Of a DNA stretch of 43,603 nt, positions 235-43,441 are shown piece by piece. Numbering within the stretch: the first letter of the stretch is position 1; each line of letters begins with the position of its first letter. The stretch lies in the sequence record SRR2962707_2065; one strand, written 5' to 3'. The position numbers were made by a program, and so were the translations under genes. The notes beneath the pieces are model-generated. The model made no database searches and was not told the DNA's origin. It was given only the letters and a program-made list of their open reading frames with translations.

Positions 235-1212
235 TTGACAGTGACAAACGAGCCCTTGGCACCCTATCGCCTCTCAGAGGCATTTATCGGCGGACGAACT
301 TTTCAAATTGACGAAGCACAATATGCGACGCTTAACGATTCGCTAACTATGATCGCTTCGGCTATGGACATCGAAGAGTTATTTCAGGTCTTTGCGCAGT
401 CCTTTCTTAGGTTTGAAAAAGATCTTCTAGAAATAAGTTTCGAGTTTAACAATCACGATAAAAACGACGCAACCGAACTTCATTTTCTTCTCAGAAATAT
501 TCGAAACCGCTTTAATGTAAACATCATAACGATTCTGACATCGTACCAAGGCTATGACCATCAATGTGACAGAATTCTCACTTCTTCGGTTAACCCGCCA
601 GAAGCGCAAGAATTCAACCTCGAAATACGTCGTTCAGCATTCGAAAAACATCTAAGTTATCGTGTTTGCGCGCTACTTAGGAACTATGCCCAACACCGAG
701 CGCTTCCACTGGGTGGATTTGATATTGGCGCTGACGCAAATTTCAGTCGTGATGATTTAGGTAAACTCATAAAAGGTGACACGGGATTCAATGTTTCTCC
801 TTGGCTGGACGTCTTGACCTTTAAGGCATCTTCACAGTGCAAAGCCTATCTTCAAAAGGAGCTAGATGGTCTCGGATACGAAAAAATAGATATTAAATGG
901 CTAATTCGTTCTTTTGCCAGCGCTATGTACGAGCGTCATGCCGCGCTCCGAGCATTTTTAAAGCCCAAGGTTGAAGCGGCAGGTAAAAATATCGATGCAG
1001 GATATAATTTCGCCAGCCTAGAAAAAAACAGCGAGGCAACATTCCTTGTGCTTCACGGAAAGGGTGAGAAACGCCACATGAGAAATGATCTGGCTACGCT
1101 ACTCTTGACGCAGTTTGAAACCTACTCATCACTGCAAAACGCCGAGAATGTGTATGTCACATCACAGATAAAGCAAAAAGAAAACACATACTCTGGCCAA
1201 ACTATTGAATAA
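235..1212 (+). CDS. Hypothetical protein with a HEPN-like RxxxxH motif (putative RNase/toxin)
   Basis: 325-aa ORF with TTG start after an AGGAG RBS. Helical sequence containing YRVCALLRNYAQH (RNYAQH at 679-696). Confidence 0.6.
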   Translation: MTVTNEPLAPYRLSEAFIGGRTFQIDEAQYATLNDSLTMIASAMDIEELFQVFAQSFLRFEKDLLEISFEFNNHDKNDATELHFLLRNIRNRFNVNIITILTSYQGYDHQCDRILTSSVNPPEAQEFNLEIRRSAFEKHLSYRVCALLRNYAQHRALPLGGFDIGADANFSRDDLGKLIKGDTGFNVSPWLDVLTFKASSQCKAYLQKELDGLGYEKIDIKWLIRSFASAMYERHAALRAFLKPKVEAAGKNIDAGYNFASLEKNSEATFLVLHGKGEKRHMRNDLATLLLTQFETYSSLQNAENVYVTSQIKQKENTYSGQTIE

Positions 1213-1312
1213 CTAAAGAGTTTGCCTGTTCTCATCAAGCTGACATAGCTCCATACCTAATTGTCAATCAGCCCTGCCACACTTTTGAAAGCAGGCTGAA
1301 CTCCTCTCTCCC

Positions 1313-1654
1313 TTAGCTTGACCACGGCTTCTCAGTAAGATTCAGCGCATGGGTTGGACACCTAAAAAAATACACCCGATCAAAGGCGGATTGTATCGGC
1401 CGTTCAATCTCAGCGTCCGCAAAGTTCGTTGCACCTGAAACTAATAAAACTTTCGGTCGCTCTTTGGGAAGAATAATCGGAGGAACCATACCTGAAACAA
1501 TGACAAGCCAGCTCTCATCACACTGCCTGTAGCCCTTAAGAGCCTCATGCTTCTTTTCGAGGATTGGGTTTAAAGAAACTTCCGAAAAAGGCTCCACAGT
1601 GCCGCCGCGTGAGCATGTGACGGCCGAGGAGTTCTGTCCGTCATTGTAAAATTG
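1313..1654 (-). pseudogene. 5'-truncated remnant of a hypothetical protein (possibly nuclease-fold)
   Basis: The frame stays open upstream of the GTG (QFYNDGQNSSAVTCSRGGTVEPF...) up to a stop at the edge of an AT-rich tract, with no RBS or ATG. The pattern ILEKK..LKGY..CDESWLVIV...FDRVYFF looks like the C-terminal half of a larger protein. Confidence 0.45.
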
Positions 1655-2030
1655 TTATATAGAAATAATTATTTCTGATTAGTTCGCGAAAACGATCAAA
1701 TAGGCGCTGATAACAGCTGCAGTGTACTTAGCAAAAAAAATGCATATGTTTATACACAACAAAGTTTAATTGCTGCTTTGTAGCTAATTGTCGCAATAGG
1801 TTTTTACAAAAGACAATTATTTTAATTAATTTCCGTAAAGTTTTGTGAAAAAGTAGTTGAATTAAATCGCCTTTATTGCCCAAATTATTTTACGAAGATT
1901 TTAAGACTTCAGGAAAGAAATAATTGACCCCACAAATTTCTGATTTTCCCTTTTGCGCTTTGAAGGCAGTCATTATCCATGATACCGATCTCTTGATGTA
2001 TTTCTGAAAATTATCATCGAGAGCAAAAAT

Positions 2031-3080
2031 ATGGTTACTGAAGATGAAAATCCCGCAATTTGGGAAGCTTTCTGTACTGCGCTCGGCACCGAGTATCGCG
2101 AAGCTCAGGAAATAGTCGGCGCGAGTGGAATATCACATCCTGTCGAAGGTATAGGTGTAGATGACAAGGGCAAGCGTCTGGTCTTAGTCTCTGGCGAATA
2201 TAACCCCCGAATTGCTGCTCTTCTTCGGGTCGATGTACAAGCGACCATGACGGACGTTCGGGTGCTGGTTGCAAGGCCCCTAGCGCTCGATCTCGCTCAT
2301 ACCGCGCGAAAGATGTTCTTCACCGACGACGGTGTACTTGACATGCAGAGTATAATGCAGCTTTCCAAAATGGCCGAACAAGGTGACCGCGCTCAAGACT
2401 TTATGAAAGAAGCCTATGGGCCGTCGGCTACCGCACTTCTAAACTCAATGTCTAAAAGCAAACTTCCAGTTAGGTCTCACGTGCTTAATTTAGTTGAGCA
2501 GCTCACGTCATTGAACTGGGACCAAATGACGAAGCCAAACAAAGAGCAAGATTTGCTACAAGTTGCGGTTAATGTTCTCACGCAGTTTTCAACTATGGAC
2601 AACCTTGCCGCGGACCGCTCTCAGGGTATTTGTCCGATACCTACTTATGAATTGACGGATGCCGACTGGGAACTGTTTCAGAACCTAAAACATATTGAGG
2701 AAATCCAGGCAAGACTTCGGGAATTGAACATTTACCAATACTTTTACCCCCCAGCTGACAGCCTAGCATTGGGATTGATCGATAATGGCATAGCTACACA
2801 CTCAGAGATCGCCAGTGGCGTGGCGATAGCCGAGGCGCAAGGTCATCAGGTATCCAAAAACGCTCTGCTTGCAGACGTGACCAATTTCCAGGAAATTGTC
2901 GAACAATTGAAGGCAAGTGGTTATGCCATGGAGGGTGAATTCGCGATGGAGTTGACAGAAAAAGGGAAGGTGTTTCGACAATCTGTTAATATTAGGCCAA
3001 GCGAAAGCCTTTTTCAGAAGCTCTCACGACTTATGTCAGTGAAAGTGAACATAGATATTAAAGATTTGTTCGATCGATAG
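2031..3080 (+). CDS. Hypothetical protein with a restriction-endonuclease-like N-terminus
   Basis: 349-aa ORF with ATG after GAG. IVGASGISHPV resembles the G-x-SG-x-x-H motif of Mrr-like domains. The C-terminal LKASGY...ELTEKG resembles a winged-helix wing. Confidence 0.55.
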   Translation: MVTEDENPAIWEAFCTALGTEYREAQEIVGASGISHPVEGIGVDDKGKRLVLVSGEYNPRIAALLRVDVQATMTDVRVLVARPLALDLAHTARKMFFTDDGVLDMQSIMQLSKMAEQGDRAQDFMKEAYGPSATALLNSMSKSKLPVRSHVLNLVEQLTSLNWDQMTKPNKEQDLLQVAVNVLTQFSTMDNLAADRSQGICPIPTYELTDADWELFQNLKHIEEIQARLRELNIYQYFYPPADSLALGLIDNGIATHSEIASGVAIAEAQGHQVSKNALLADVTNFQEIVEQLKASGYAMEGEFAMELTEKGKVFRQSVNIRPSESLFQKLSRLMSVKVNIDIKDLFDR

Positions 3081-3332
3081 GAAGGAGCAGAGGCATCCGC
3101 AACTGCCATTCACAAATTCTGATTTATGGAATGACGAAAAAGTCCAAATGAAATATATATATAATTCGCGATAACATTCAATTATCAAAGCTAATTGATG
3201 TAAAAAAGGGAGGGGTTAAAACTCTCATTTATGATATTTATAAGGGCACATTGCCTTATATAACTGCAAAAGCTGCTAAAAACTCTGATCTAGTGGACAT
3301 CGACCACATGTACTAGACATTACTAATCATGC

Positions 3333-3644
3333 CTATTTGATCAGGTTATAGAAAATTTGGTGCATCCAGCTGCAATCAGGCATTCCGCGTTTCGCCAAGC
3401 AAACAAATTCGTCACGCTCTTCGTCCACACGAACACTATCTGTTTTGTCGATCGCGCTGCACCTACCTTCGAGGTATGCTTGGATCACAAACCGTTGTGC
3501 TGCTTCTTTATCAGCACTTTCCATCAACATATGCAGTTTTTTAGCATCACCATAGTATTTGCATGCGATACCTCCAATTTCATCTTGTGCACTCACAGAC
3601 GTCATTCCGCACAGAATAAAAATAAATACTAGAATTGCTCTCAT
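3333..3644 (-). CDS. Small secreted hypothetical protein
   Basis: ATG at 3644 follows a strong GGAGGAGG RBS. Signal peptide MRAILVFIFILCGMTSVSA, and four Cys in the mature part. Confidence 0.7.
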   Translation of the reverse strand: MRAILVFIFILCGMTSVSAQDEIGGIACKYYGDAKKLHMLMESADKEAAQRFVIQAYLEGRCSAIDKTDSVRVDEERDEFVCLAKRGMPDCSWMHQIFYNLIK

Positions 3645-3788
3645 TTCCTCCTCCAAAGTAGCCGCATTTATTTTCGCAAATCACTAATTCTACAAATAAA
3701 ACCGCGTTTTCTAGACATCCCTCAGGTTCATTTTCGCTGCTTTTAAAAGTCTGCAGGTGAAAGCAGCGTAATGATCGCGCCATCTAGA

Positions 3789-6700
3789 TTAAGGATGCCA
3801 ACGTTCACCAACTGCGGCCCGTTCGTCTTGACGTAGACCATCCCATTCATAACCTTCTGCTATTGTGATGATCATCGCTGAGACACGGGGATAGGAGTTC
3901 CCATATCGCCTAGCAAGAGCACGATAGTTACCTGCCAACTTCCGCTCCTGCGCTCCACCGTCATATGGACCGCGAGAGGTTACCCCACGCGCATTGCTTA
4001 CGCCCAAGCAAAACCGTTCACGCAAACCATCGTTTTGCTGACGGTTCAATAATTCAAGAACACAAGTAGGCAACCAATCATCCCAAGGTCGCCGACGAGC
4101 TAACCGCGCCAGCAAGGCCCCAAAATGAATTTGGGCAACCTCTCTTCGATCCGCCTCAGCGGCACCAATTAAAGCCTCATCGACCCAAGAATAGAAATCT
4201 TCATCGACTATTTCGCCATCCAAAGCGCTACCCGGAATTATTTCCCAACCTTCTAGTATATGGCGTGCCAACTTAGCTAGAAGTTCTTGTTTATCCTCAG
4301 TAAAATCATATTGAGAGGGTTCGAGCGCACCATCGCTTCGCTGATATCTCCAGCGAAGCAGTTGAACAAAAAGCATAGGTTTACGAGCTAATTCGCGATG
4401 CACTGCGAGAGTGCGTGTGTGGTTGCGATGTCCGTGCCTGCAAAGCAGCGGAACGAAAAACAATTCAAGATTTGCGATCTGTTCATCGGTTATTTCATCA
4501 GAAGCATCAAGTTGCTGGAGCACATCATCCAATTCGTAGGAGCTGGGGAATGGTCCATTTGGCTCTTCCCCCTGTCCCATAGCTTGCAGAATACGCATCC
4601 ACTGCTCAGCTGAAAGCCGATCTTTAACAAATGAAACGGCTGAAAACACAGATCGCGGCCGACTAGCGGCAAGCAATTTGTCAACAACATAATCAATTTC
4701 TTCCGGTGCCATGTCGTCCCGTACATGAATGTAAACTGAACTCCAAAACGCTGACGCAATATCATCACCCAAAGCCTCAGCGACGTGCCAACCAACTGAA
4801 CGCCCGGGGAGATGCTCAGCAAACCTCTTTCGTTGCTCTTCCATCTCAAGCAAACCTTGCTCAGTGAGCGCTGTGCTTACAGAACGCAAATCATTCCAAC
4901 TGGCATTCCATAATACCTGTTGCAGGAAGGCGTCGGAGCGATCATTCGGTTCTTCACGTAGTGCTGCACTAACCCAACGCGTCGCAGTCTCAAGACTTGC
5001 GTTTTGAGGAACCAATACCCTCGCAACCAAATCAGGCTGCTTTACACCTAGGGCGAACGGAAGAATTGCGTCTTCTCCAAATTGCTCTTGGATTTCAGTT
5101 AATGCTATGCGGCGTCTCTCTTCAATAATGGCCTCACGCTCCCGCCACGAAATACGCCCTTCACCTTCGTCTTCTGCCAATGCACGCCACTCTACATGGG
5201 AGCTTTTAAAAAGCCATCGATGGCGTGCCGTAGCGGAGTGCGGTTCTAGCGCGTCCTCAATTCGCTTAAGCGCGGTAACTAGTTCTTCTTCGTTATCGTT
5301 GTGCTGATACGCACGCAAAACGTCACGCTGCCGAAGAATATCCCGAAGCTCGGCCTTGTCTTCATCATCGGCACCATTTGACCAACGTTCCACTTCGCTT
5401 ACTAAGCGTTTTAAATCGTTTGGGTGCAGTCTTATTGCCACTTCAATCAGAAGCTTAAGTTCAGCAATGTCGCAGGGCGCTAAATCCAAAAGCAAGTGGC
5501 TGGCTTCAATTGCTGCATTAAGTACTTCGACGTCGGTTGGACTAGGCACTTCTTCTTCCAATGCTCGCCATTGTGGTCTCGCAGCTCTAGAAGCAAATCC
5601 CGGCCCGCCTTCTGGTAAAAGTGAAATACACACGTCAATGACAGGACCTCGAAAGCTGTCTGAAAGGCCACGCAATACCGCCATCCGGTCAGGCATTTTA
5701 AGGGCTGTGGCTGGCAACCACGCCAAAAACAGCGAACGGGCCGTTGATTTTGGCGAGTTTGACCAGTTGTCTTCAACCTCAAGTCCTCTTAAGCCAAATA
5801 TGATTTCTGCCACCCGCGAAAAATGAGCCGGATGCCAAGCCAGTAACTCTAATGCCCAAAGTAGGTCCGTTCTTAGGCAGTCGCCACTAATTCCCCCTTC
5901 TACTGTACCCATAATTGCACTGATCGGTGGGGTTGGCCTACTAAGCTCATATTCCAAACAATCGAGAAAGGCCGTGGGCGACGCTTCGGCGAGCATTCTC
6001 AGATGGCCGCGGATTGTAAGCCAGCGTTCCGCATCTGCGTCCTGAAGGAGCTTACGGACAACTTGATCAGCGCGATATCGCAAATCAATACCTAGCCGAT
6101 CACCACAAATTTCAGAGCCATAAATAGACACAATACATAAAGCATCGCCCAGACCGGAGAGTAGCGCCCCAGAGTTGCTTCGCGTGTGACCCAATGCATC
6201 AGCCATCCACCATTGTTCTTGCGGAAGGTCCAGCGCAGGATCTCTATCCCCCAAAATTTCCGGCAATAGTTGGAAAAAGCGGTCTAAATCTTCTCGCTCG
6301 ATATACGGCCCAACAGCAAAAAGTGCGTCTAATTGGGAAACAACCACATTTACATGGCCATAACGGGCAATTGGAGCGTCATCAAGTGCCAACAATTCTT
6401 GCTGAATGCGTACGACATCTCCTTTTTCAAGTTCACCAAGGAGTTGAATTATTATTTCATCATCCATGTTTTCACGCTCTACCCAAGAGCCAGCAAGCGC
6501 AAAAGGTAGTAAGAGCTTGGCTGATGCGCGATTGCGCGCCCAAAGTGGTCGCCTGACCTCAGGATCGCTTGATAGATGACGGCGTAAAACCGGAACCGAA
6601 TGACCCGTCTTCAATGCCATGCTTGTAGCTTCGTCGCGCGGTAGTCCCATGGCCTCAAGCTCAGAACGGAACGTCTCAGAAGGAACATGTGAAAGCAAGA

Positions 6701-7580
6701 GTGCATCTCTGACATCCAAACGGCCCTTGGGATAAGCACGGACAATGGTGATGTTTCGCCGGTCCCCAAAGTCTAACTCTTCACCTTCAGCTACATCCGC
6801 TACAACAATCAAACGGTTCGGGCCGGAAGGAATTCTGGCATCACTGGAGGTGGCCACAAGAGTGCGATCAAGAAGATCAAGTGCATCAGCTTCTATTAAA
6901 GACGAAACGACAAACGCAACGGCCTCTTCCCTGTCATCAGCTTGAACTGGAATGACGCGCGAACCATCGCGCAGCTTAGACAGCAGTGTCTCTCGCTCTG
7001 TATGCCGCCTTGTCGAGACAAGTTTCATGGTGATTGGTGGCACAGACGCGGTTGCCCACGCTTGCCACCACTCTTGCGGTGTTTTTAGGCCTGTGGAGGC
7101 TACTCCGATTTTTTCACCTAGCCAACGTGTGGTCGCGGGAGCCTCTTCTAGCCAAGTTTCGAGGTCGATAGCATCAAATGCGTGCACGGACGCCCAGCGG
7201 CCCTCCCGACGTCGCTCCGCAAGCCAAACGTCTTTGCTGCCCCACCTTCTGGGGGTTACAAAGACAAAACTGCTGGCCAAGCGATCTTCCAGAGGAGTTT
7301 CATTAGTTCGCTTGGAATAGTCACCATCTGCTTTTATACGCGGGTCTTGATTGCAACCCATTTCCCAAACGCTTCGGCCTTCCGGAACCCAAGTAGTTGC
7401 AGTATCGCATTCAACTTGACCATCCAGACCTGCCAAATCAACAGCTTCATTGCCAGGAAACCGTAACACTTTTAGATTTTGTGTAGTTTCCCGGATCAAT
7501 CTGCGAACTAGAATAGGCAGGTTGCTTCGACACTCATGGCGGTCAGCCCACTGGCGAATTTTCGTTTCGTCAATCAACAT
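3789..7580 (-). CDS. Large protein: N-terminal PD-(D/E)XK-like nuclease, degenerate STAND/P-loop-like region and helical C-terminus (candidate defence protein)
   Basis: 1263-aa ORF. N-terminal motifs GLDG...WEMG...KADGDYSKRT, FVFVTP and DAIDLETWLE. A Walker-A-position segment IPVQADDREEAVAF and a Walker-B-like LIVVAD. Long Leu/Trp-rich helical region. Confidence 0.65.
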   Translation of the reverse strand: MLIDETKIRQWADRHECRSNLPILVRRLIRETTQNLKVLRFPGNEAVDLAGLDGQVECDTATTWVPEGRSVWEMGCNQDPRIKADGDYSKRTNETPLEDRLASSFVFVTPRRWGSKDVWLAERRREGRWASVHAFDAIDLETWLEEAPATTRWLGEKIGVASTGLKTPQEWWQAWATASVPPITMKLVSTRRHTERETLLSKLRDGSRVIPVQADDREEAVAFVVSSLIEADALDLLDRTLVATSSDARIPSGPNRLIVVADVAEGEELDFGDRRNITIVRAYPKGRLDVRDALLLSHVPSETFRSELEAMGLPRDEATSMALKTGHSVPVLRRHLSSDPEVRRPLWARNRASAKLLLPFALAGSWVERENMDDEIIIQLLGELEKGDVVRIQQELLALDDAPIARYGHVNVVVSQLDALFAVGPYIEREDLDRFFQLLPEILGDRDPALDLPQEQWWMADALGHTRSNSGALLSGLGDALCIVSIYGSEICGDRLGIDLRYRADQVVRKLLQDADAERWLTIRGHLRMLAEASPTAFLDCLEYELSRPTPPISAIMGTVEGGISGDCLRTDLLWALELLAWHPAHFSRVAEIIFGLRGLEVEDNWSNSPKSTARSLFLAWLPATALKMPDRMAVLRGLSDSFRGPVIDVCISLLPEGGPGFASRAARPQWRALEEEVPSPTDVEVLNAAIEASHLLLDLAPCDIAELKLLIEVAIRLHPNDLKRLVSEVERWSNGADDEDKAELRDILRQRDVLRAYQHNDNEEELVTALKRIEDALEPHSATARHRWLFKSSHVEWRALAEDEGEGRISWREREAIIEERRRIALTEIQEQFGEDAILPFALGVKQPDLVARVLVPQNASLETATRWVSAALREEPNDRSDAFLQQVLWNASWNDLRSVSTALTEQGLLEMEEQRKRFAEHLPGRSVGWHVAEALGDDIASAFWSSVYIHVRDDMAPEEIDYVVDKLLAASRPRSVFSAVSFVKDRLSAEQWMRILQAMGQGEEPNGPFPSSYELDDVLQQLDASDEITDEQIANLELFFVPLLCRHGHRNHTRTLAVHRELARKPMLFVQLLRWRYQRSDGALEPSQYDFTEDKQELLAKLARHILEGWEIIPGSALDGEIVDEDFYSWVDEALIGAAEADRREVAQIHFGALLARLARRRPWDDWLPTCVLELLNRQQNDGLRERFCLGVSNARGVTSRGPYDGGAQERKLAGNYRALARRYGNSYPRVSAMIITIAEGYEWDGLRQDERAAVGERWHP

Positions 7581-7958
7581 ATTGCCACCTTTGCCACCGT
7601 AAAATGCAACTTATTTACATAAATGGTATTTGAGCCGGTTAATGACAACCCGTAATTGCAATAGTTGGTTACGTAACGTTAATTTACCAATTACATGGCC
7701 GCTGCGGATTTACGAATTTTGTCCACATAATGGAAATACAACTAACGATAACTCCCAATTTTCAATTCTAACTGCAGGCACAAAAAATCCTTTTGGCTAG
7801 CAAATTACAAAAGTATAATGCAAAATATGGTTCGTAAGTTTATGAAATAATTCTAGAATAAGCTGATAGGGCCTATTAAAGTAGATTATTACTGCGTAAT
7901 GTTGAAACGCCTGCTCGTCATGTATTTGGTTGGTTAGCTCGAATTACAAAGGCCGAAA

Positions 7959-8780
7959 ATGAACATCCCAACGTGGGCCAAAGCCAAGGCAAAATTGAGC
8001 GTGAAGGTAAATGATATTTATCGTCCCTTTATGTCAACGCCTGATAGTATGAAGCGATATGTTCGACCTGCTTTGTTCAGCACAGGCGATCCTGCATTTG
8101 AATTACGATACTTTGGGACAGCACTAATGGCAAGTTACTGCGATGTGCGTTTCGCGATTACAACCGCTCATCAAGTGGATACAAAGAAGGATGCGCCTGC
8201 AGCGGAGACTTTCGTTGTGGTCGTCGAAGGGCCTAGCGGGAAAATTGCGCTTCCCCCGGCATCTTATAACCAGCCTAGCTTCGCCGAAACGGAGTACTCT
8301 TCACTTAACGATTTAGTGTTCTTTGACTATGAAAACGATGTTGTAAGCAAAGGTGTAGATTTCCTGAATTTATCACAGGTGTTTTGGTCAGACGACCGCG
8401 ATTTGAATACTGATTACTCCTTTGTGATCGGTTACCCGACGAGTTCAGTAGCAATCGAAGTTGATTTAGACAATGGATCATCATTGTCGGAATTTGTTTT
8501 GCGCTGGGTAAGGCAGGATCTGCAGTCTGCTCCAGCAGAACCAATGGATACCGAAAATAGAAATATTTTTGTAAAACATGAAGGTTCAAAGCGTATCAGT
8601 ATAGAGCCAGATGGCCTTAGTGGGTCACCCGTTTTCTCCATCGTTTCTAACAGTTCAAAAGAGCGGCAGCTGAAATTTGAAGGTATAGTGACCGATGCAA
8701 ATAAGGATCGGTTTGCCGTGTATCCAAGCTCATTAATCAGGAAATCGCTTGATTGCATTCTAGAAAAACAAGCTAGTTAG
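7959..8780 (+). CDS. Trypsin-like (PA clan) serine protease, cytoplasmic
   Basis: Catalytic triad motifs in order: ITTAH (His), NDLVFF (Asp), DGLSGSPVF (Ser). No signal peptide or PDZ domain. Confidence 0.75.
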   Translation: MNIPTWAKAKAKLSVKVNDIYRPFMSTPDSMKRYVRPALFSTGDPAFELRYFGTALMASYCDVRFAITTAHQVDTKKDAPAAETFVVVVEGPSGKIALPPASYNQPSFAETEYSSLNDLVFFDYENDVVSKGVDFLNLSQVFWSDDRDLNTDYSFVIGYPTSSVAIEVDLDNGSSLSEFVLRWVRQDLQSAPAEPMDTENRNIFVKHEGSKRISIEPDGLSGSPVFSIVSNSSKERQLKFEGIVTDANKDRFAVYPSSLIRKSLDCILEKQAS

Positions 8781-9033
8781 CTTCGATTGCTTCTAGAGAG
8801 CGCGTATAGTGATCCGCGAGCTGGTTTTTCTTCATCTTTAATAACTCTGTTTCTTCATGCTCGGGACATTTTAGCACTCAATGATAGCCAAGCCATACTC
8901 AGCGCCGTTGGCCCTGTCGCGATAGCTCCCAATTATCACGACCAAAAATGCATCAGCTCGATGGTCTCTTAGCCTTCAATGCTTTTACTTAATGTGATCG
9001 ATCGTTTGTAGTCTAATCTAGTTGTCACCGGCG

Positions 9034-10629
9034 TTATTTCAAATAACGGGCAAGTTCATCGAATTCGAATAAATGTGTAAAATCCAAACTTGATTTTAAC
9101 GCTTTGATTTCTTCATTTATCGCTTTCTCATTTATAAATGAGGCGCCCTCAATGAGACCCTTTGCCAAAGTCGTGCGTAAGTATGAGCCTTGGTCAGTTC
9201 CTCTAGCCCCAGTCAGGACAAAACTGCCAAGACAGGTTATCTTGAAATCGTCGCTGAACTTCGGGCTAAGAATTACAATGCGTAGCGTTTCGCACAAGGT
9301 TTCGGCTGCCCAAAATGGTATCGCACACGCATTGCCTGCCTCACTTGCAGTCGTAGGCGCTTTGTGTGCATTTTGATCGGGCAGCGTGTGATCCAGTTCA
9401 ACCCAGCTTTCAAGGGTTGTCAGTGCTTTGAAAATCAAAGCTTCTTTTAGGTCAGAACCTTCAGACAATTGATTTTCTGGGCGTGTTCTATTTTTAGGAA
9501 GCTCTTCGAGATCTTTGACGAAAAATCGCAAATACATTAACCACATATGGTCCATATGTTCTTGTGTCGCAGCTTGCCGGACAAGGATATCAAAGAAGTG
9601 AATGGCAGAATATGTGATGTCGTCAAAAAGGTCGACACTTTCTTGAGGTGGAGCTTCATTTAGCCGAGCTTGATATGCTTTATTTTCTTTAATTTCCTTA
9701 GTTACGGCATCACCAACTGGCTTCCAGACACCTATTTTAGTTGCAAATTCCACTTGGCCAACAAGAGCATTAAGAAGAGTGCTTTCCTCAGAAATAAAAT
9801 ATCTGTTTAGATTGCGACCGTCTGTCCGCTTGATGTCTTGCCGTAGGTGGCTTTCTTTTTCCACCATGCTTTCGGCAAGGTAGAGATCGCACCAATCATA
9901 GTGGCTATCATAGAAGCGAGTGAAAAGCTGCGCAGCAAATTTCGGTTTAATGGTGTGGAATACATTTCGAACGCCTTTGCTTTTGGCTAAAATATCAATG
10001 ATTAACCGAGCACTATGCGTTTGCCGTTGAAATGAAGGGTGTAACCAACGAAGTGATACGAATATCCAGCGGCTCCACTTTGGACTTCTCCATCTAGGCT
10101 TCTTTTGAAGTCTATCTAAATATTCGTCTGCGGCAACCTTCTTTTCGCTTGCATAGGCAACCCAGTCATATCTTCTAAGCGCCCCAACCGTTCGTTCAAC
10201 ACTATGGCGCAAAACTGGCAAATAAGGCTCAACAAGCTCAAGTAATTCAAGGTAGCGCCTCTCGTCGTGGAGCCTCTCAACCAGAGGCAGAAGTCGTTTT
10301 AACTTTCCCGAATGAGGGCGATCAAAAAGAAATGACAGCCATGCAGCAATCGCCCAAATCAACGTTGCGATGAAAGCGATGTGTGTATTATTTAGTGGAT
10401 CATTCGGATTTCCAAACCCAAGCCCTTCCACCCCAAGTTTATACTCAGCGGGAAGGACATTCAGGATTGGCCCTATAAATTCAAATGGCAGTATAATGAG
10501 AAGAGCGGCGCAGATTAAAAAAACCTGATTTGGCGCATTGATGCGCAGCTTCAAACGCGTGACAGGGTCAAGGACGGCATAGCCCGCTATAAGTAAGCCG
10601 AAAAACGTCAAGAAACCATCTAAACTCAA
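9034..10629 (-). CDS. Hypothetical membrane-anchored protein (about 3 N-terminal TM helices plus a large soluble helical domain)
   Basis: 531-aa ORF with TTG start. Three hydrophobic segments in the first ~105 aa, then hydrophilic helical sequence. Confidence 0.7.
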   Translation of the reverse strand: MSLDGFLTFFGLLIAGYAVLDPVTRLKLRINAPNQVFLICAALLIILPFEFIGPILNVLPAEYKLGVEGLGFGNPNDPLNNTHIAFIATLIWAIAAWLSFLFDRPHSGKLKRLLPLVERLHDERRYLELLELVEPYLPVLRHSVERTVGALRRYDWVAYASEKKVAADEYLDRLQKKPRWRSPKWSRWIFVSLRWLHPSFQRQTHSARLIIDILAKSKGVRNVFHTIKPKFAAQLFTRFYDSHYDWCDLYLAESMVEKESHLRQDIKRTDGRNLNRYFISEESTLLNALVGQVEFATKIGVWKPVGDAVTKEIKENKAYQARLNEAPPQESVDLFDDITYSAIHFFDILVRQAATQEHMDHMWLMYLRFFVKDLEELPKNRTRPENQLSEGSDLKEALIFKALTTLESWVELDHTLPDQNAHKAPTTASEAGNACAIPFWAAETLCETLRIVILSPKFSDDFKITCLGSFVLTGARGTDQGSYLRTTLAKGLIEGASFINEKAINEEIKALKSSLDFTHLFEFDELARYLK

Positions 10630-10774
10630 TGTGCGTTACCTTTTTTGAATAACCGCCGAGTATCACGTCAACCGTAAAAAAGCAGTAGGAAATATGAGCT
10701 TCAAAATTGACTTAAAACGACCAGAAGATAGACTGGGTAGTTAATTGCGATCGTCAACTTTGCGCGCAAAACGC

Positions 10775-11214
10775 TCATTTCAAGCTAGAAAAACTGAGAC
10801 TGCGGGCTTTTAAAGTTACGTCACAAAATTTAGACACGTCGGAAACATCGCTAGTTCTGTGTATTGCGCGCGATGGCACGTAGAGCACAATACCGAAAAG
10901 TCGCTTGCTTTTAGTTCACGAATTTCGTTCGCTTCCATCTCAGCCCAAGGCAAAAGATGATGTAATTCAAATACACTACCCCAGATAGGCTGATCTTTTT
11001 GGGAAATAGAGTAAAAACAAGCCTCGCATTTAAATCCTTTTTCATGAATGAAGCCTCGGTTATTACCCCGTCCTTCCCATCTTTCATGTAGTTTGCGATG
11101 CCTGTAATCAGTCACGCTTTTCTGTCCCGTGGGCAAAGCCGCTTGGTCGTGTGCATATTTCAATGTATTTTTGATCCGCTCTTTTGATGCTTTAGGATAA
11201 ACGGAAGCTCCTTT
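10775..11214 (-). pseudogene. McrA-like HNH endonuclease remnant (5'-truncated and frameshifted)
   Basis: CEAC...FELHHLLPW...LCSTCHR zinc-HNH motifs. Removing 2 nt from the CG run at 10865-10872 restores CHRAIH and reads to TGA at 10775-10777. Upstream the frame hits a stop at ~11215 with no ATG. Confidence 0.7.
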
Positions 11215-12114: not shown

Positions 12115-13590
12115 TTAGACCGCCCAGTAGAGGCTTTTGGACTGTTGGTAAGCACGAAGGCCTTGAAGACCCTTTTCGCGGCCCAATCCGGAGAGCTTAA
12201 AACCGCCAAATGGTGCAGCAATTGACAATTGCTTGTACGTATTGATCCAAATGGTTCCCGCTTCTAAGGCACGAGACACCCGCCAAGCGCGGCGGTAATC
12301 ATTCGTCCAAATTCCGGCAGCAAGTCCAAAGACGCTGTCATTTGCCGCCGCGATAAGCTCAGCTTCGTTTTCGAACGGCATAAAGCAGAGGACGGGTCCA
12401 AAGATTTCTTCTTGTGCGATCGCTGATGAATTATCGATGCTGCCAATGATCGTGGGCATATAATAAGCCCCCTTCTCAAATGTTGCACCTTCGGGCCGCT
12501 TTCCCCCGAATAGAACTTCTCCGCCTTCATCGATACCGCGCTGCACGAACGCCTCAACACGCTCGCGGTGGGCAAAAGAGGCAAGTGGGCCTAAAACACT
12601 CTCACTATTTTCCGGCGGACCGACATGCATTGCCTTTGCTTCGGCAATCAACAACTGTTGGAATTTATCAGCGACACTTTTCTCAACGAATAAACGAGAA
12701 CCTGCAACACAGGACTGTCCTGTACCGCCAAAAATGCCGGACGCGACCGCCTTAGCTGCTTCTTCGAGATTAGCGTCTGCAAAAACGATATGTGGCGACT
12801 TGCCCCCCAATTCGAGAATCAACGGTATCAAACGTTTAGACGCGCCGCGGGCGATACTTTGGCCAGTCGTCGTTCCACCTGTGAAAGAGATAAGGCCAAC
12901 GCCTGGATCTTCAACCAACGCAACTGCGGTTTCTACTTTGCCCGTAATGACAGACACCAAGCCATCTGGAACGCCAGCCGCGACGACACATTGCCCTAAT
13001 GCGAGCGAAACGAATGAAGTTGTCTCTGCCGCTTTAAGAACAATTGCATTACCAGCAGCCAGTGCAGGCGCGATCTTTTGCGCACCCATCGTCAATGGAG
13101 AATTCCAAGGCGTCAATGCAGCCACAACACCAACAGGTTCTTGAACGGTCATCGTAAAATATTCGCCACGCGCAGGCGGCATGGCATCTTCGCTACACTC
13201 ACAAACAGCCGCGTAATAGCGAAAAATATCTGCAGCCATCAGCGCTTGTGTTCGGCTTTCTTTTCGCGTCTTGCCATTTTCTAGCATCTGCAATTCAGCC
13301 AGATGATCGACTTGGCGCTCAATCTCGTCGGCAGCTTTACTTAAGACGCGGGCGCGTTTGTGCGGAGGCAATACGCCCCATCCAGACTTACGCAGCGCCA
13401 AATTGGCATCAGCTATGGTTTGGCTTACTTGCGCCGCACTTGATGTTGCGACCTTTCCAATGAGGCTGCCATCAGCTGGATTGACCACATCCAAAATCTC
13501 CCCGTCACCCTGAACAGGCTTTCCGCAAATTAATACTGGCTCGACGCGGTCAGCGGCGGGCAAACTTGGCGGTAAATCAAACAATGACAT
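12115..13590 (-). CDS. NAD(P)-dependent aldehyde dehydrogenase
   Basis: TPWNSP, FTGGT, LELGGKSP (catalytic Glu), GQSCVAG (catalytic Cys), EEIFGP and PFGGFKLSG. Confidence 0.95.
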   Translation of the reverse strand: MSLFDLPPSLPAADRVEPVLICGKPVQGDGEILDVVNPADGSLIGKVATSSAAQVSQTIADANLALRKSGWGVLPPHKRARVLSKAADEIERQVDHLAELQMLENGKTRKESRTQALMAADIFRYYAAVCECSEDAMPPARGEYFTMTVQEPVGVVAALTPWNSPLTMGAQKIAPALAAGNAIVLKAAETTSFVSLALGQCVVAAGVPDGLVSVITGKVETAVALVEDPGVGLISFTGGTTTGQSIARGASKRLIPLILELGGKSPHIVFADANLEEAAKAVASGIFGGTGQSCVAGSRLFVEKSVADKFQQLLIAEAKAMHVGPPENSESVLGPLASFAHRERVEAFVQRGIDEGGEVLFGGKRPEGATFEKGAYYMPTIIGSIDNSSAIAQEEIFGPVLCFMPFENEAELIAAANDSVFGLAAGIWTNDYRRAWRVSRALEAGTIWINTYKQLSIAAPFGGFKLSGLGREKGLQGLRAYQQSKSLYWAV

Positions 13591-13602
13591 GTGTAATCCT
13601 TT

Positions 13603-14316
13603 TTATACACCCAGATACGCGGCGCGTATTTCCGGACTATCTAATAATTCGCGTCCCGTGCCGGTCATTGTGACTTGACCAGTCTCCAGAACAATTCCGC
13701 TCTCAGCGAGTGATAAAGCCATGTTGGCATTCTGCTCGACCAACAAAACCGTCATGCCTAAATCACGGTTTATCTCGACGATGATTTTGCCCAATTCTGC
13801 GACAATGATCGGCGCAATACCCAGTGATGGTTCGTCCAATAAAAGTAGTTTCGGCTGCGCCATTAAAGCGCGACCTATCGCAGCCATCTGTTGCTCGCCC
13901 CCTGAAAGGGAGCCAGCCATTTGGCGCCGACGTTCTTTAAGGCGAGGGAAATAACCGTAGACGCGACTAAGCATATCGCGGCGGTCGGCAGCATTGGACA
14001 CCGTATAGGCGCCCATTTGCAGGTTCTCTTCAACGCTCAAACGTCCAAAGAGCCTGCGACCTTCCGGTGCCATAGCAACGCCCAGCTTTAATGCGTCGCC
14101 CGGCCGCGGATTGACGAGTTCTCCGCCGACGCTGACAGAACCGCTGGTAGGCACAACCAAGCCGCAAATGGTTTTTAGAACAGTGCTTTTGCCCGCTCCA
14201 TTTGAGCCCACTAACGCTGCGATCTGGCCAGCGGCCACGTCAAAACTAACGTCGTGAAGTGCTTCAACCGGCCCATAACTCACACTGATATTTTTAACTG
14301 AGAGATTGCTAGACAT
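13603..14316 (-). CDS. Branched-chain-amino-acid-type (HAAT) ABC transporter ATPase, LivF-like
   Basis: GSNGAGKST, LSGGEQQM and LLLLDEPSLG. Probable start is ATG 14316, overlapping the upstream gene end. Confidence 0.93.
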   Translation of the reverse strand: MSSNLSVKNISVSYGPVEALHDVSFDVAAGQIAALVGSNGAGKSTVLKTICGLVVPTSGSVSVGGELVNPRPGDALKLGVAMAPEGRRLFGRLSVEENLQMGAYTVSNAADRRDMLSRVYGYFPRLKERRRQMAGSLSGGEQQMAAIGRALMAQPKLLLLDEPSLGIAPIIVAELGKIIVEINRDLGMTVLLVEQNANMALSLAESGIVLETGQVTMTGTGRELLDSPEIRAAYLGV

Positions 14317-15082
14317 TTTCTTCAGCTCCCAAATATGCCTCAATCACACGCGGATTGTTTTGCACTTCTTTTGGCGTGCCCTGAGCGATCTTCTCGCCGT
14401 GATCGAGCACGACAATCCGATCACAGACCCGCATGATCAGCCGCATGTGATGCTCCACGATCAATATTGAGAGATTGAATTTGTCCTTAAGCACGCCGAT
14501 CATAGAGCTAAAATGGTCGACCTCTTCTGGGTTAAGTCCAGCAGCAGGTTCGTCGAGCAAAAGAAGCGCGGGTTTGGTTGCCAATCCTATGGCAACGCCC
14601 AACCGTTTTTGATGGCCATAGGCAAGTGTTCCTGCTTCGCGATCAGCGTGACGGGTGAGATCCAAAGCCTCCATCACTTCACCGACTGTTTGATCTGCAG
14701 CAATCAAAGCCCGCTTTGATGCGTCACCGCCAAGGACCATCTGCACAACGCTCAACTTGTGACGTAGCAATGCGCCGCGTAGAATGTTCTCTCGTACGGT
14801 AGCTTTTGGAAAAGTCGTCGCCGATTGAAACGTGCGCGCAAGCCCACTCTCCACCACACGGTGTGGTGCCAGCCCTGTAATTGACTTATCTTGAAAAATC
14901 ACTTTTCCAGAAGTCGCGGGCAACGTTCCCGTGATCAAATTGAAGCAAGTCGTCTTTCCGGCGCCGTTAGGTCCGATGAGGCCCGTCACCTCTCCCTGGT
15001 TAGCCTCAAAGTTAACATCGGATAGCGCAGTAAGGCCGCCAAACTGCTTCGTCAGATTTTGCAATTGGAGAATGACTGTCAT
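14309..15082 (-). CDS. HAAT ABC transporter ATPase, LivG-like
   Basis: GPNGAGKTT, LAYGHQKRL, LLLDEPAAG and VIEAYLG. ATG 15082 is coupled to the upstream TGA. Confidence 0.93.
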   Translation of the reverse strand: MTVILQLQNLTKQFGGLTALSDVNFEANQGEVTGLIGPNGAGKTTCFNLITGTLPATSGKVIFQDKSITGLAPHRVVESGLARTFQSATTFPKATVRENILRGALLRHKLSVVQMVLGGDASKRALIAADQTVGEVMEALDLTRHADREAGTLAYGHQKRLGVAIGLATKPALLLLDEPAAGLNPEEVDHFSSMIGVLKDKFNLSILIVEHHMRLIMRVCDRIVVLDHGEKIAQGTPKEVQNNPRVIEAYLGAEENV

Positions 15083-16053
15083 TTCGATGACCTCCACATT
15101 TGGTTTATTTTATGTGGCAATGCGGTGAGGCCATCAGGTAAGAAACGAAGCACAGCGATCAGAACCACACCGTAGATTATGTGTTGATATTCTTGGGCAC
15201 CGCGCAGAAATTCTGGCAATGGTGTTAGGAAAATTGCCCCGATCAAAGGACCGGCCAATAATAGCCGCCCGCCAGTAACGAGGATAATCACGTAGGAAAC
15301 AGATAACTGGAAAGCAAAGCTCTCCGGCGAAATGAACCCGATATAATGGGCCATGATTGCACCTGTAAAACCTGCTATTGCGCTGCCGATCACGAAGGCC
15401 ATGTTCTGCGTGCGGGCAGTTGGTATACCTGACGCTTCTGCAAGATCTAGGTTTTCTTCAACGGCTGCAAAGCGGCGTCCGAGCGGACCACGTTTAATCA
15501 TCCATAAGAAACCCATCACAAATGCGAGCATTACCAATGTGAAGATATAAACATCAGACTGTTGCTGCAGCTCCAAGCCAAAAATATTGATTTTAGGAAT
15601 GCCCGCTATACCGCTTGAGCCGCCAGAAACAGACGGGAACTCAAGCATTACAAGCCGGAAAAGTTCATTGAGTGCAAAGGTAATGAGCACGAAATAGACG
15701 CCGCGCAATCGCAGCAATGGAGTTCCGATAATATAAGCGATGGCGCCAGCTACCAAAGCAGCAGCAGGCAAACCGAACATGAATGGCACGCCCAACCGTG
15801 TGACAAGCAACACGCTTGTATAAGCACCAATACCGACAAAAGCGCCATGAGCCAGCGATAACTGACCAACCCACGCAACAGTCGCTAATCCAGCAGCAGC
15901 CATCGCGCCCAAGCACACCATAATGGCAATATGAAAATGAAATATACTGCCCGTAAACCAAGGAATTAAAGCGATCAGAACCAGTGCTGCTGTGTATCCA
16001 ATCACAGGGAAGCCAAGGCGGTTTTCTTTCCGACTTTCTACTAATTCACTCAT
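15079..16053 (-). CDS. HAAT ABC transporter permease, LivM-like
   Basis: Multi-TM protein with GQLSLAHGAF and LRLRGVYFVLIT motifs. Confidence 0.92.
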   Translation of the reverse strand: MSELVESRKENRLGFPVIGYTAALVLIALIPWFTGSIFHFHIAIMVCLGAMAAAGLATVAWVGQLSLAHGAFVGIGAYTSVLLVTRLGVPFMFGLPAAALVAGAIAYIIGTPLLRLRGVYFVLITFALNELFRLVMLEFPSVSGGSSGIAGIPKINIFGLELQQQSDVYIFTLVMLAFVMGFLWMIKRGPLGRRFAAVEENLDLAEASGIPTARTQNMAFVIGSAIAGFTGAIMAHYIGFISPESFAFQLSVSYVIILVTGGRLLLAGPLIGAIFLTPLPEFLRGAQEYQHIIYGVVLIAVLRFLPDGLTALPHKINQMWRSSK

Positions 16054-24432: not shown

Positions 24433-24480
24433 CAGGGAGGACTAAATGAAGCAATTTTCACTCAGGGAGGACTATATGAA
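24433..24480 (+). repeat. Duplicated RBS plus start codon (18-bp direct repeat, 30-bp period)
   Basis: CAGGGAGGACTAAATGAA (24433-24450) and CAGGGAGGACTATATGAA (24463-24480). Confidence 0.85.
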
Positions 24481-25447
24481 ACGACTTTATAAATCCGCAG
24501 CGTTTGCCGCTGCATTGATGCTGCCTTTGGGAGGCATCTCGCATGCTGAACGGCTCGCGATTGGTTCCACAGCATCATCTTCAAGCCACTATGCCTATTA
24601 CGTGGCGGCCAGCCAAGTCATCAACAAAGGCGCAGAAGGCGTTGACACCAACGTGGTCGAAACAGGTGCTACACTTGACAACTTAAGACGTCTGGAGCGT
24701 GGCCAAGTCGATATGGGCTTGGTAACAACCAACGTTGCCTATGACATGTATAACGGCAAAGGTACGTTCGAAGGCAAGCCATATGGCGGACTCGTATTAT
24801 GGGTATATGGCGTTTCAATACAAAACGTCGTCACACGCAAGGATGCTGGAATTGCTACACTTTCTGACCTAGAGGGCAAAAAGTTCAACCCAGGCATTGT
24901 TGGGTCCGGCACCGAAGCGACCACTGAATCAGTGTTTGCGGCTTTAGGCATAGCGCCTGATTGGGCACGCGGCTCAACCGGCGATATTGTCGATCAGATT
25001 AAGGACAATCGCGTTGTTGGCTATGTAAAATCCAGCGCTGGGCGTAAACTTGACGCATCTTCGGTCGATATTTCAACACTCACACCGGTTAGCGTTCTAA
25101 GCCTAAACGACGAACAGGCAGCTATCGTTGCTGAAAAATTGCCTAGCCTCTCAATCGTCCAAGTTAAAGAAGATGAAGCGGCCAAAGGCGTGTCTGCCTA
25201 TCGTACATGGGCTTATGCGACCACGACAATCGCGCGTCCAGACCTAGACGAAGAAACCGCCTACCGCATCACAAAAGCTATTGTCGAAGACAATGAACTT
25301 CAAGCAGCAGCATTTGCAGGACTTAAAGGATCAGACATTCCATTAATGACAATGGAACTCTCGACATCACCGCTGCATCCTGGCGCTATTCGCTATTACG
25401 AAGAAATCGGAATGACCATTCCTGACCATCTACGGCCTGCTCAGTGA
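24476..25447 (+). CDS. TAXI-family TRAP transporter substrate-binding protein
   Basis: Signal peptide, ETGATLDN, GSGTE and PLHPGAIRYY motifs. Alternative in-frame start at 24446. Confidence 0.92.
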   Translation: MKRLYKSAAFAAALMLPLGGISHAERLAIGSTASSSSHYAYYVAASQVINKGAEGVDTNVVETGATLDNLRRLERGQVDMGLVTTNVAYDMYNGKGTFEGKPYGGLVLWVYGVSIQNVVTRKDAGIATLSDLEGKKFNPGIVGSGTEATTESVFAALGIAPDWARGSTGDIVDQIKDNRVVGYVKSSAGRKLDASSVDISTLTPVSVLSLNDEQAAIVAEKLPSLSIVQVKEDEAAKGVSAYRTWAYATTTIARPDLDEETAYRITKAIVEDNELQAAAFAGLKGSDIPLMTMELSTSPLHPGAIRYYEEIGMTIPDHLRPAQ

Positions 25448-41631: not shown

Positions 41632-41735
41632 TTTATGCTCCAAACTTGGATGTAAAGAACTGCCTCCGTCGCGAACGCAACGAAGAGTGGTATCTTCAAA
41701 AATTCTAGCGTCGATCTTCAAGGTGGGACGAATGG

Positions 41736-41826
41736 CCCCCTAAACAAAAAAATCCGCAAGGCGAACCTTCGGGCAAGGGCGCCGGTTAAAATGAGTAAAC
41801 GGTTATGTTTGGGGGATGAAGCGGAT
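41736..41826. other. Candidate structured non-coding element between alpA and the second recombinase
   Basis: Interleaved complementary segments: CCCCC(T)AAACA with TGTTTGGGGG, and ATCCGC with GCGGAT, around a central GGCG..CCTT/AAGG..CGCC hairpin. A T7 tract follows on the minus strand. Confidence 0.4.
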
Positions 41827-41839
41827 AAGGAGGCGTGCA

Positions 41840-42034
41840 TCAGTCTACACCTGCCAAAGCCTCAAAATCCAATAAATCGGGGAGTCTCCAACGGGTGCAG
41901 CCACGACCGAGTTTTACTGGATTAGGGAATTCGGCCCTGTGCGATGTCCATCGCCAAATGGTATTTACGGAAACACCATAGCGTGCGGCGACGTCTTGAA
42001 CTGAGAGGAATAGAGCTTCTTGCAACGTTTTCAT
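41840..42034 (-). CDS. AlpA-family HTH protein (probable excisionase/RDF)
   Basis: FLSVQDVAARYGVSVNTIWRW...FPNPVKLG..TRW. Start is ATG 42034 or 42046. Confidence 0.9.
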   Translation of the reverse strand: MKTLQEALFLSVQDVAARYGVSVNTIWRWTSHRAEFPNPVKLGRGCTRWRLPDLLDFEALAGVD

Positions 42035-42228
42035 GACGAAATCCATAGTGGTCCGTAGACCGGCTATAAGCACGTCATGCGCTAGCAAGGTTTATTGAGT
42101 CACATTTGACCCAAGCGAGTAACAAAGATGACTCTATCGGCTCCGCGAGTCAACAAAGCATCTAAATAAAATTTTCTTGAAAGATAACGGCTTGGCGCAA
42201 GCATCGGCATCATTCAAAAAATCAACAC

Positions 42229-43419: not shown

Positions 43420-43441
43420 CTGGGGTAACACTGGGGTAACA
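43420..43441. repeat. Tandem 11-bp direct repeat, probable integrase arm-type binding sites
   Basis: CTGGGGTAACA twice, abutting the integrase ATG and about 125 bp from the att core. Confidence 0.75.

Follow-up and report, generated by a model that had tools for sequence, protein, structure and literature searches.

An apparently Avs-like gene without a P-loop in a candidate defense-type region of mostly unnamed genes

The window considered here, a 43,603-nucleotide (nt) stretch of DNA from sequence record SRR2962707_2065, begins with a region (positions 235–11163) that holds eight open reading frames (ORFs) of at least 94 aa, named A to H, and a ninth ORF of 67 aa. The largest, gene E, looks like an Avs-like (antiviral STAND-like) protein that does without the usual ATP-binding loop: its modeled N-terminal part joins a restriction endonuclease (REase)-like head to an AAA+/STAND-type core, and a long conserved C-terminal region follows. 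On balance, we favor the view that the region as a whole is a defense-type variable region. A first-pass annotation had described it as made almost entirely of unnamed genes, and so it is: Pfam, NCBIfam, and PADLOC name none of A–G, with zero matches at the cut-offs used for PADLOC (E-value ≤0.01) and NCBIfam (0.001). A–D and F have no family in these three libraries or in PHROGs, the fourth library scanned, apart from a sub-threshold Pfam line for A.

Homologs of gene E fall into 196 clusters. The protein matches over its full length a PHROG with a function-less label (phrog_18693, E-value 1.7e-200), its Atlas clusters are all unnamed, and a PDB sequence search with a profile of the family returned nothing meaningful. 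An AlphaFold2 model of residues 1–345 has a predicted local distance difference test score (pLDDT) of 93.6 and a predicted template modeling score (pTM) of 0.89, and it was compared with 48,161 PDB representatives in a VIA structure search. The head is predicted to adopt an Mrr/PD-(D/E)xK fold, with matches to AF1548 (Z 9.8, root-mean-square deviation 2.6, 111 residues aligned), R.BspD6I (Z 8.8), FokI (8.7), and MspJI (8.5), and also to Card1/Can2 (7.7–7.9). Asp53, Glu73, and Lys83 are invariant in alignments of 23 and of 60 sequences. The core matches the NRC2 resistosome (Z 8.6), ClpA (8.4–8.6), RFC (8.3), ZAR1 (8.0), Dark (7.5), and EfAvs5 (7.2). Foldseek, given the same residues 1–345, places Avs3 (8dgc, E-value 5.6e-5) and Avs4 (8dgf, 2.7e-4) at the top with probabilities of 0.96–0.99 and ranks AVAST5, EfAvs5, and SAMD9 after them. 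The first-pass description of E as nuclease/STAND-like has thus gained strong support at the level of the fold. Of the features that mark an Avs or antiviral STAND protein, the model strongly supports both an N-terminal effector, whose fold appears to be present and whose catalytic activity is predicted, and a central STAND/AAA+ fold, which the core of E would supply.

What the core lacks is the P-loop. Walker A (G-x4-G-K-S/T) occurs at the equivalent place in 0 of 23 aligned family members, a result that counts against calling E an Avs protein outright, and in 0 of 7 viral-contig variants. Elsewhere in the sequences the Walker A pattern does turn up, with three matches among the aligned members and one among the viral-contig variants, and PD-lambda-4A, taken as a positive control, carries the motif at residue 241. 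In the model of E, the strand at residues 209–214 gives way to the helix at 217–230 with 2–3 residues between them. The P-loop is lost across the whole family examined. This loss also separates E from Avs3 and Avs4, active NTPases that tetramerize upon binding terminase or portal. Those two proteins are the best Foldseek matches across both head and core, but they are 12–13% identical to E, and their much greater length keeps the TM scores low.

The C-terminal region of E, the presumed sensor, closes with a strongly conserved motif (Arg1198, Gly1199, Gly1208, Gly1209, Glu1212, and Arg1213 in the alignment) and offers a second connection to the Avs proteins. PD-lambda-4A from Escherichia coli is reportedly the system of Vassallo 2022. 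With hhalign, residues 525–653 of E align to residues 556–680 of PD-lambda-4A over 120 columns (probability 89%, E-value 2.4e-6); the target was taken from viral contig L036 and is itself a full-length match to the PADLOC model PD-Lambda-4_A (E-value 0). The same model is matched weakly, at equivalent positions and over about 70–110 residues, by 5 of 13 relatives of E that were scanned (1.1e-7 to 3.1e-4). A preprint renames PD-lambda-4A as Avs8A and describes a protein with an Mrr nuclease and a P-loop NTPase that is triggered by HK97-fold capsid proteins (10.1101/2025.07.02.662641); a second preprint confirms capsid sensing by Avs8, and one of its figure legends notes degenerate Walker motifs in KpAvs8, "suggesting a lack of ATPase activity" (10.64898/2026.01.04.697583).

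Avs8 and E resemble each other in length (1283 and 1263 aa), in the order of their parts (Mrr/REase-type head, NLR-type core, long C-terminal region), and in that, by the account of this legend, an Avs8 homolog with degenerate Walker motifs exists to set beside the P-loop-less E (10.64898/2026.01.04.697583). They differ in that no member of the E family has an equivalent of the Walker A of PD-lambda-4A, in that similarity in sequence is undetected beyond the 120 columns, and in that the ORF downstream of PD-lambda-4A in L036, presumably Avs8B, has no relative among the ORFs of the region. E would be no more than a remote relative of Avs8 that lacks the P-loop, and we do not assign it as a member. 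We read it as a new Avs-like variant without a P-loop and not as a categorically new system. A degenerate Avs8 is already in print. The earlier statement that no member of the region could be matched to a named system needs amending for E, whose kind is known.

Within the family, the N-terminal part varies. Viral-contig variants with lengths of 1182, about 930, and 767 aa align to E only from residue ~347 or ~516 onward and therefore have other heads or none; Pfam names no head among these shorter variants. In one IMG/VR contig (L031, 9543–12676), a complete 107-aa HetE-N ORF (Pfam E-value 5.6e-33) ends 14 nt before a headless family gene of 931 aa, and the two lie in different frames, which makes them a frameshifted fusion or else an effector/sensor pair split in two. 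The distribution of the family is patchy and mobile, spanning plasmids and prophages. Among 401 genomes drawn from the class, 13 have a match, near full length in 10, and among 401 drawn from the phylum, 12 do. Relatives were found in 25 plasmid records, 12 of them conjugative, with hosts that include Actinomycetota and Bacteroidota, and 26 IMG/VR viral contigs match the family.

Some of these relatives have defense genes as neighbors. At 24 loci, 14 of which come from the viral-contig collection, the 148 ORFs within 3.6 kb were scanned with PADLOC at an E-value ≤1e-10; five ORFs were left out, one of which, of 2177 aa, gave no match when scanned separately. PADLOC neighbors were present at 10 of the 24 loci (22 of 148 ORFs, among them two matches that we judged generic, to SNF2 at L028 and to an ABC ATPase at L048), a raw fraction with no matched baseline, as are the counts given below for genes C and A. 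The named neighbors are listed in Table 1. In the genome record with a 68%-identical relative (L001), the patatin gene of a type II-like CBASS operon stops 2 nt before the start of that relative. Pfam adds an Abi_alpha protein in L047 and shows integrase, transposase, or phage genes adjoining relatives of E at 10 of the 24 loci. Three of the 25 plasmid contexts were viewed: on a Thalassospira plasmid, the relative is surrounded by Abi, SIR2, and AbiEii genes and two RES-Xre pairs, the second has a restriction enzyme and insertion sequence (IS) elements, and the third has IS elements and plasmid maintenance genes. A conserved partner of E among the genes of the region was considered and ruled out, as none of them co-occurs with relatives of E in 36 loci; the genes are therefore independent modules.

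Two of these loci deserve a description of their own. In the IMG/VR contig L036 (4709–16467), a hotspot flanked by a P4-type integrase contains full-length PD-lambda-4A (Avs8A), a divergent family gene of 1248 aa, and an AbiLi/AbiLii pair, so that a single hotspot holds two NLR-type genes, one with a P-loop and one without. In L049 (genome G211), a relative of E that bears a helix-turn-helix (HTH) domain lies between two very large unnamed ORFs (3488–7441, 1317 aa, and 12266–15820, 1184 aa), to which neither Pfam nor PADLOC gives a match.

The remaining genes of the region supply candidates of several kinds. Five ORFs (A, C, E, F, and G) have conserved homolog families, are full length, and keep the residues that are invariant in those families; because such families exist, we take these five to be genuine genes. 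The homologs of A form 47 clusters, 42–66% identical and all unnamed or "hypothetical." Arg149 and His154 lie in an R-N-x3-H motif, the HEPN catalytic signature, and are invariant in 21 of 21 aligned sequences, which makes A a candidate RNase effector with a HEPN-type motif. The sole library line for A is the sub-threshold Pfam Tea_mid, with no NCBIfam, PADLOC, PHROG, or PDB sequence match, and tblastn found no match to it in plasmids. The invariant motif is shared with HEPN Abi proteins (AbiD/F, AbiJ, and similar), but no HEPN model of Pfam (E-value ≤1) or PADLOC matches any of 21 family members, and hhalign against three Abi-type proteins was empty. Of the earlier label HEPN-like, the motif thus stands, and neither a HEPN family nor a HEPN fold was detected in these comparisons. 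The family occurs in 1 of 401 alphaproteobacterial genomes.

Gene C, with homologs in 63 clusters, had been called REase-like, and here the support is divided. The AlphaFold2 model has a pLDDT of 78.9, with residues 311–349 unreliable. All of its top eight VIA matches are to nucleases or nuclease-like proteins, with middling Z scores (5.4–7.0; AF1548 7.0, NucS 7.0, Can2 6.9, VC1899 6.0), and we take these eight to share the PD-(D/E)xK (REase-type) fold; the winged helix gives matches of Z 4.4–5.4. This moderate support from VIA is offset by a Foldseek search that returned nothing at an E-value ≤0.001 and by the canonical D…(D/E)-x-K motif, since the invariant residues of the family alignment (His36, Asp44, Arg49, Asp68, Arg82, and Pro83) include no E/D-x-K. 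PDB sequence searches with C and with F gave nothing meaningful. The C family is present in 1 of 401 genomes. From 65 metagenome loci, 38 were kept by eye for their flanks and 31 after removal of near-duplicates; together with the one genome locus these make 32 loci, with 136 ORFs scanned within 3 kb and twenty ORFs under ~110 aa left out. PADLOC neighbors occur at 9 of the 32 loci (14 of 136 ORFs): two type II restriction-modification (RM) systems, a DRT reverse transcriptase, Dsr1, PD-T7-4, PDC-S47, PDC-M36A, a PD-T4-6-type kinase, and a weak pVip match. A conserved partner of C was sought and rejected, as neighbors are shared only among near-duplicate loci. On pSymA of Sinorhizobium meliloti, the neighborhood of a relative of C includes a pYEATS protein, IS21, and a type I R subunit. 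There (L058, 8065–13209), the C-family gene is followed after 30 nt by a same-strand gene for a hypothetical protein of 1714 aa, which is unrelated to the 1707-aa ORF beside the relative of C in L133.

The earlier call of a protease holds up for F as a candidate: His71, Asp118, and Ser221, the last within G-x-S-G-x-P, form a triad in the expected order and are invariant in 4 sequences of 25–51% identity. F has no Pfam match at an E-value ≤0.01 and its Atlas clusters are unnamed; Trypsin_2 is found in 10% of the members of one neighboring Atlas cluster. Relatives of F are present in 6 plasmid records. On a Rhizobium plasmid, one lies 17 nt after a DUF4238 gene, a family of which one protein is reported in a preprint to have given resistance to T7 (10.1101/2021.01.21.427644). 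On an Agrobacterium plasmid, another lies beside a type II RM system, TrlF, SIR2, and an ATPase, and two further contexts are IS-rich, one with AbiEii nearby.

Gene G, as annotated at first pass, appears to encode a membrane protein, with about three hydrophobic segments within residues 2–103 by hydropathy. It matches phrog_13820 (function-less label, E-value 1.1e-20) and has homologs in 430 representative clusters at an E-value ≤0.001; Pfam gives a substantive family in none of 30 members. One plasmid relative of G lies beside PIN, HNH, Abi, and DUF6602 genes and another relative beside a UvrD-type helicase and a PD-(D/E)xK nuclease, and Stx-converting phage records show weak matches ~2.3 kb from their left end. 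For H, the HNH reading finds some support in five PHROG HNH families (4.7e-5 to 6.5e-3, the best two 4.7e-5 and 7.5e-5) and falls short in Pfam, where the HNH match (E-value 0.005, 17.4 bits) lies below the cut-off of 21.4 bits.

Table 1. Features of the window and named neighbors of relatives of gene E. Positions refer to the window, except for L001, where they refer to its genome record.
Feature	Position	Strand	Description
Gene A	235–1212	plus	325 aa; invariant R-x4-H motif
ORF B	1313–1597	minus	94 aa, GTG start; no family support
Gene C	2031–3080	plus	349 aa; PD-(D/E)xK-like N-terminal domain, helical insert, winged helix at residues ~241–306
ORF D	3333–3656	minus	107 aa; signal-like hydrophobic N terminus (residues 4–25), six cysteines
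67-aa ORF	3580–3783	minus	just downstream of E; overlaps D in another frame
Gene E	3789–7580	minus	1263 aa; head, core, long C-terminal region
E, residues 341–1263 and stop	3789–6560	minus	long conserved C-terminal region, presumed sensor
E core, residues ~162–340	6561–7097	minus	predicted AAA+/STAND-type module without P-loop
E head, residues 1–158	7107–7580	minus	predicted restriction-endonuclease-like domain (Mrr/PD-(D/E)xK fold)
E–F spacer	7581–7958		divergent; AT-rich, GC 0.357
Gene F	7959–8780	plus	273 aa; chymotrypsin/trypsin-type serine protease candidate
Gene G	9034–10629	minus	531 aa; N-terminal membrane anchor and conserved cytoplasmic domain
Gene H	10816–11163	minus	115 aa; small HNH-type nuclease candidate at region edge
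Right-flank genes	from 11358		IclR regulator, two aldehyde dehydrogenases, Liv-type ABC transporter, TcuA, AtuA pair
Right-flank genes, further			TAXI-TRAP and TctABC transporters, hydrolases, GntR
Tyrosine recombinases	39970–41721 and 42229–43431		29 kb from the region
L001	6071–13792		WYL plus CBASS genes (cyclase, E2, patatin effector) immediately upstream of 68%-identical E relative
L022			NsnB/HEC-03B-type ATPase near E relative
L024			two methyltransferases and type IV enzyme near E relative
L026			one methyltransferase near E relative
L027			PDC-M28B/C near E relative
L031			PDC-S31 and methyltransferase near E relative
L033			AbiEi/AbiEii near E relative
L034			PDC-S33 near E relative
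L036			PD-lambda-4A and AbiLi/AbiLii near E relative
L050			type I S subunit near E relative; Pfam adds AbiJ and HD

The ORFs of the region stand alone on both strands, as the first pass had noted. They are not strictly alternating in orientation, with five strand switches among the eight and D/E and G/H as same-strand neighbors. The spacers are AT-rich, also as noted, with GC of 0.36–0.46; the genes of the region have 0.43–0.50 and the adjacent 27.5 kb of metabolic genes 0.50, and in the GC profile the ~11-kb region lies below the adjacent DNA. On its left, the region runs up against the edge of the window and is truncated there. To the right (11358–43431), 28 kb of catabolic and transport genes end in the two tyrosine recombinases, the outer of which is of P4 type (Arm-DNA-bind_3 plus Phage_integrase) and lies 172 bases short of the window end. 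It is possible that the entire window is one large genomic island with its tRNA/att site just outside. Near-identical DNA to the window was found in neither plasmids nor phages. An empty insertion site in genome G001 was considered and rejected, since the best aldehyde dehydrogenase match there is 38% identical and hence no close relative. Within the flank, a 26-nt direct repeat in two copies 30 nt apart (24433–24488) lies at the start of the TAXI-TRAP binding-protein gene and includes a ribosome-binding-site-like GGAGG and an ATG.

How firmly can this region be called a defense-type variable region? The call of a defense island made at first pass draws support from the architecture of E, the profile link to Avs8, and the defense neighbors of relatives of E, C, F, and G; no recognized defense gene has been found to go with these. 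Like the defense hotspots of P4-like satellites, prophages, and plasmids, the region consists of independent small systems in mixed orientation with AT-rich spacers, and E-family genes lie inside such hotspots next to integrases (L034, L036, L042); it differs from them in that no integrase, tRNA, or known defense gene adjoins it. A number of results weigh against a defense reading. PADLOC at an E-value ≤0.01 is empty for every ORF of the region save a chance-level DpdF line for H, so that 0 of 10 ORFs in 235–11163 have a meaningful match to a known defense system, and E itself gives no PD-lambda-4_A match at that threshold. The profile link to PD-lambda-4A spans just 120 of ~1260 columns at a probability of 89%, and VIA Z scores of 7–10, such as those of E, fall in a range that the tool grades as middling. 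The HEPN reading of A comes down to one motif, and the lone genome locus of its family has PADLOC neighbors among 0 of 8 ORFs. The neighborhood counts (E 10 of 24 loci, C 9 of 32, A 0 of 1), a check proposed at first pass, were made without a matched control, and the viral-contig collection accounts for 14 of the 24 E loci. Among the 10 whole-genome E loci, clear PADLOC neighbors are found in L001 and L050 only, three with the Pfam Abi_alpha of L047 included, and five (L051–L055) show metabolic or unnamed neighbors only. The earlier idea of a tRNA-integrated island finds no footing: the whole window contains zero tRNA or other Rfam RNA, flanking att-like direct repeats were not found beyond short chance pairs, ordinary catabolic and transport genes make up the right flank, and no integrase adjoins the region, the only recombinases of the window lying behind those genes at 39970–43431. 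The defense function of the region is thus one that we infer from circumstantial support, because no recognized defense gene is present, the counts are uncontrolled, and most of the E loci are viral.

The same observations would suit generic cargo of mobile elements, serving maintenance, rival exclusion, addiction, or DNA processing, in which case defense neighbors would reflect shared residence in variable regions. That relatives of E are frequent on plasmids, that mobile-element or phage genes adjoin them at 10 of 24 loci, and that half of the whole-genome loci have no defense neighbor in uncontrolled counts all fit such cargo. A nuclease head with an NLR-type core and a long C-terminal region is, however, the signature architecture of an Avs sensor, and the profile link of E to the validated anti-phage PD-lambda-4A and the CBASS operon directly beside its closest relative likewise speak against generic cargo, which we regard as a serious if rather unlikely explanation. 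Far less probable is a role for E as a DNA-binding regulator or an antitoxin, the functions under which its relatives appear in public records. Relatives at ~30% identity do carry an N-terminal HTH_3/HTH_31 (XRE-type) domain, and it is because of this domain in distant relatives that names such as "HigA family addiction module antitoxin" and "XRE family / helix-turn-helix transcriptional regulator" have arisen. This domain is an add-on of ~90 residues, absent from E and all its closer relatives; the annotation disregards the other ~1260 residues, and no conserved toxin partner adjoins members of the family. We see little chance of a regulator or antitoxin here.

It is also conceivable that part of the region is non-functional, with B, D, and the 67-aa ORF arising by chance and some of the larger genes being decaying relics in a cold spot by a catabolic island. 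None of the three small ORFs has a relative in any search: B and D have no match in Pfam, PADLOC, NCBIfam, or PHROGs, nor in plasmids by tblastn, and the 67-aa ORF has none in Pfam, PADLOC, or PHROGs. A collection of 15 billion proteins contains none of the nine ORFs as an exact sequence, and consensus scans for promoters and terminators gave 13 and 14 sites versus 16.8 and 12.7 in shuffles, which does not set them apart from shuffled sequence. B, if not a chance ORF, may be an orphan gene. The 67-aa ORF is probably not a gene; at the locus of the closest relative of E (L001), no same-strand ORF of at least 90 aa lies directly downstream. D, from its sequence, seems to be a small, intact protein whose start is signal-like. 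Against wider decay, A, C, E, F, and G each span the full length of their families and retain all family-invariant residues, and frame breaks were not seen. A six-frame reading of the spacers, including those around B, showed no obvious broken long frame, and the two decayed genes of the first-pass annotation find no confirmation here. That some of the region is dead is, in our estimate, improbable.

If the region is of defense type, as we favor, it would be a horizontally acquired variable region of independent single-gene modules like those of anti-phage defense islands. The C-terminal ~900 residues of E would bind a phage protein, and this binding would release E or lead it to assemble through its NLR-type core. 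Because the core has no P-loop, this assembly would need no nucleotide binding. The REase-like heads, brought together in this way, would then cut DNA and abort the infection. Genes A, C, F, G, and H would be further stand-alone effector-type genes, as their motifs and folds and part of their relatives' neighborhoods suggest. A more far-reaching proposal, which we offer tentatively and consider rather doubtful in full, is that the large and widespread E family (phrog_18693) forms a nucleotide-independent branch of Avs with swappable heads (nuclease, HetE-N, and others) and an optional HTH domain, and that A, C, F, and G each constitute a new anti-phage system made of one gene.

By the prevailing view, STAND/NLR immune receptors need to bind nucleotide to switch on. 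If the E family still defends its hosts, an NLR-type switch would be workable without a nucleotide, a possibility hinted at by the one degenerate Avs8 homolog in the figure legend of a 2026 preprint (10.64898/2026.01.04.697583). Plasmids and prophages of Alpha- and Gammaproteobacteria often carry the family, which at present is misannotated as an antitoxin or regulator, and its recognition would correct many records. Genes A, C, F, and G would add four more unnamed families as defense candidates from marine alphaproteobacteria, in which few systems have been tested.

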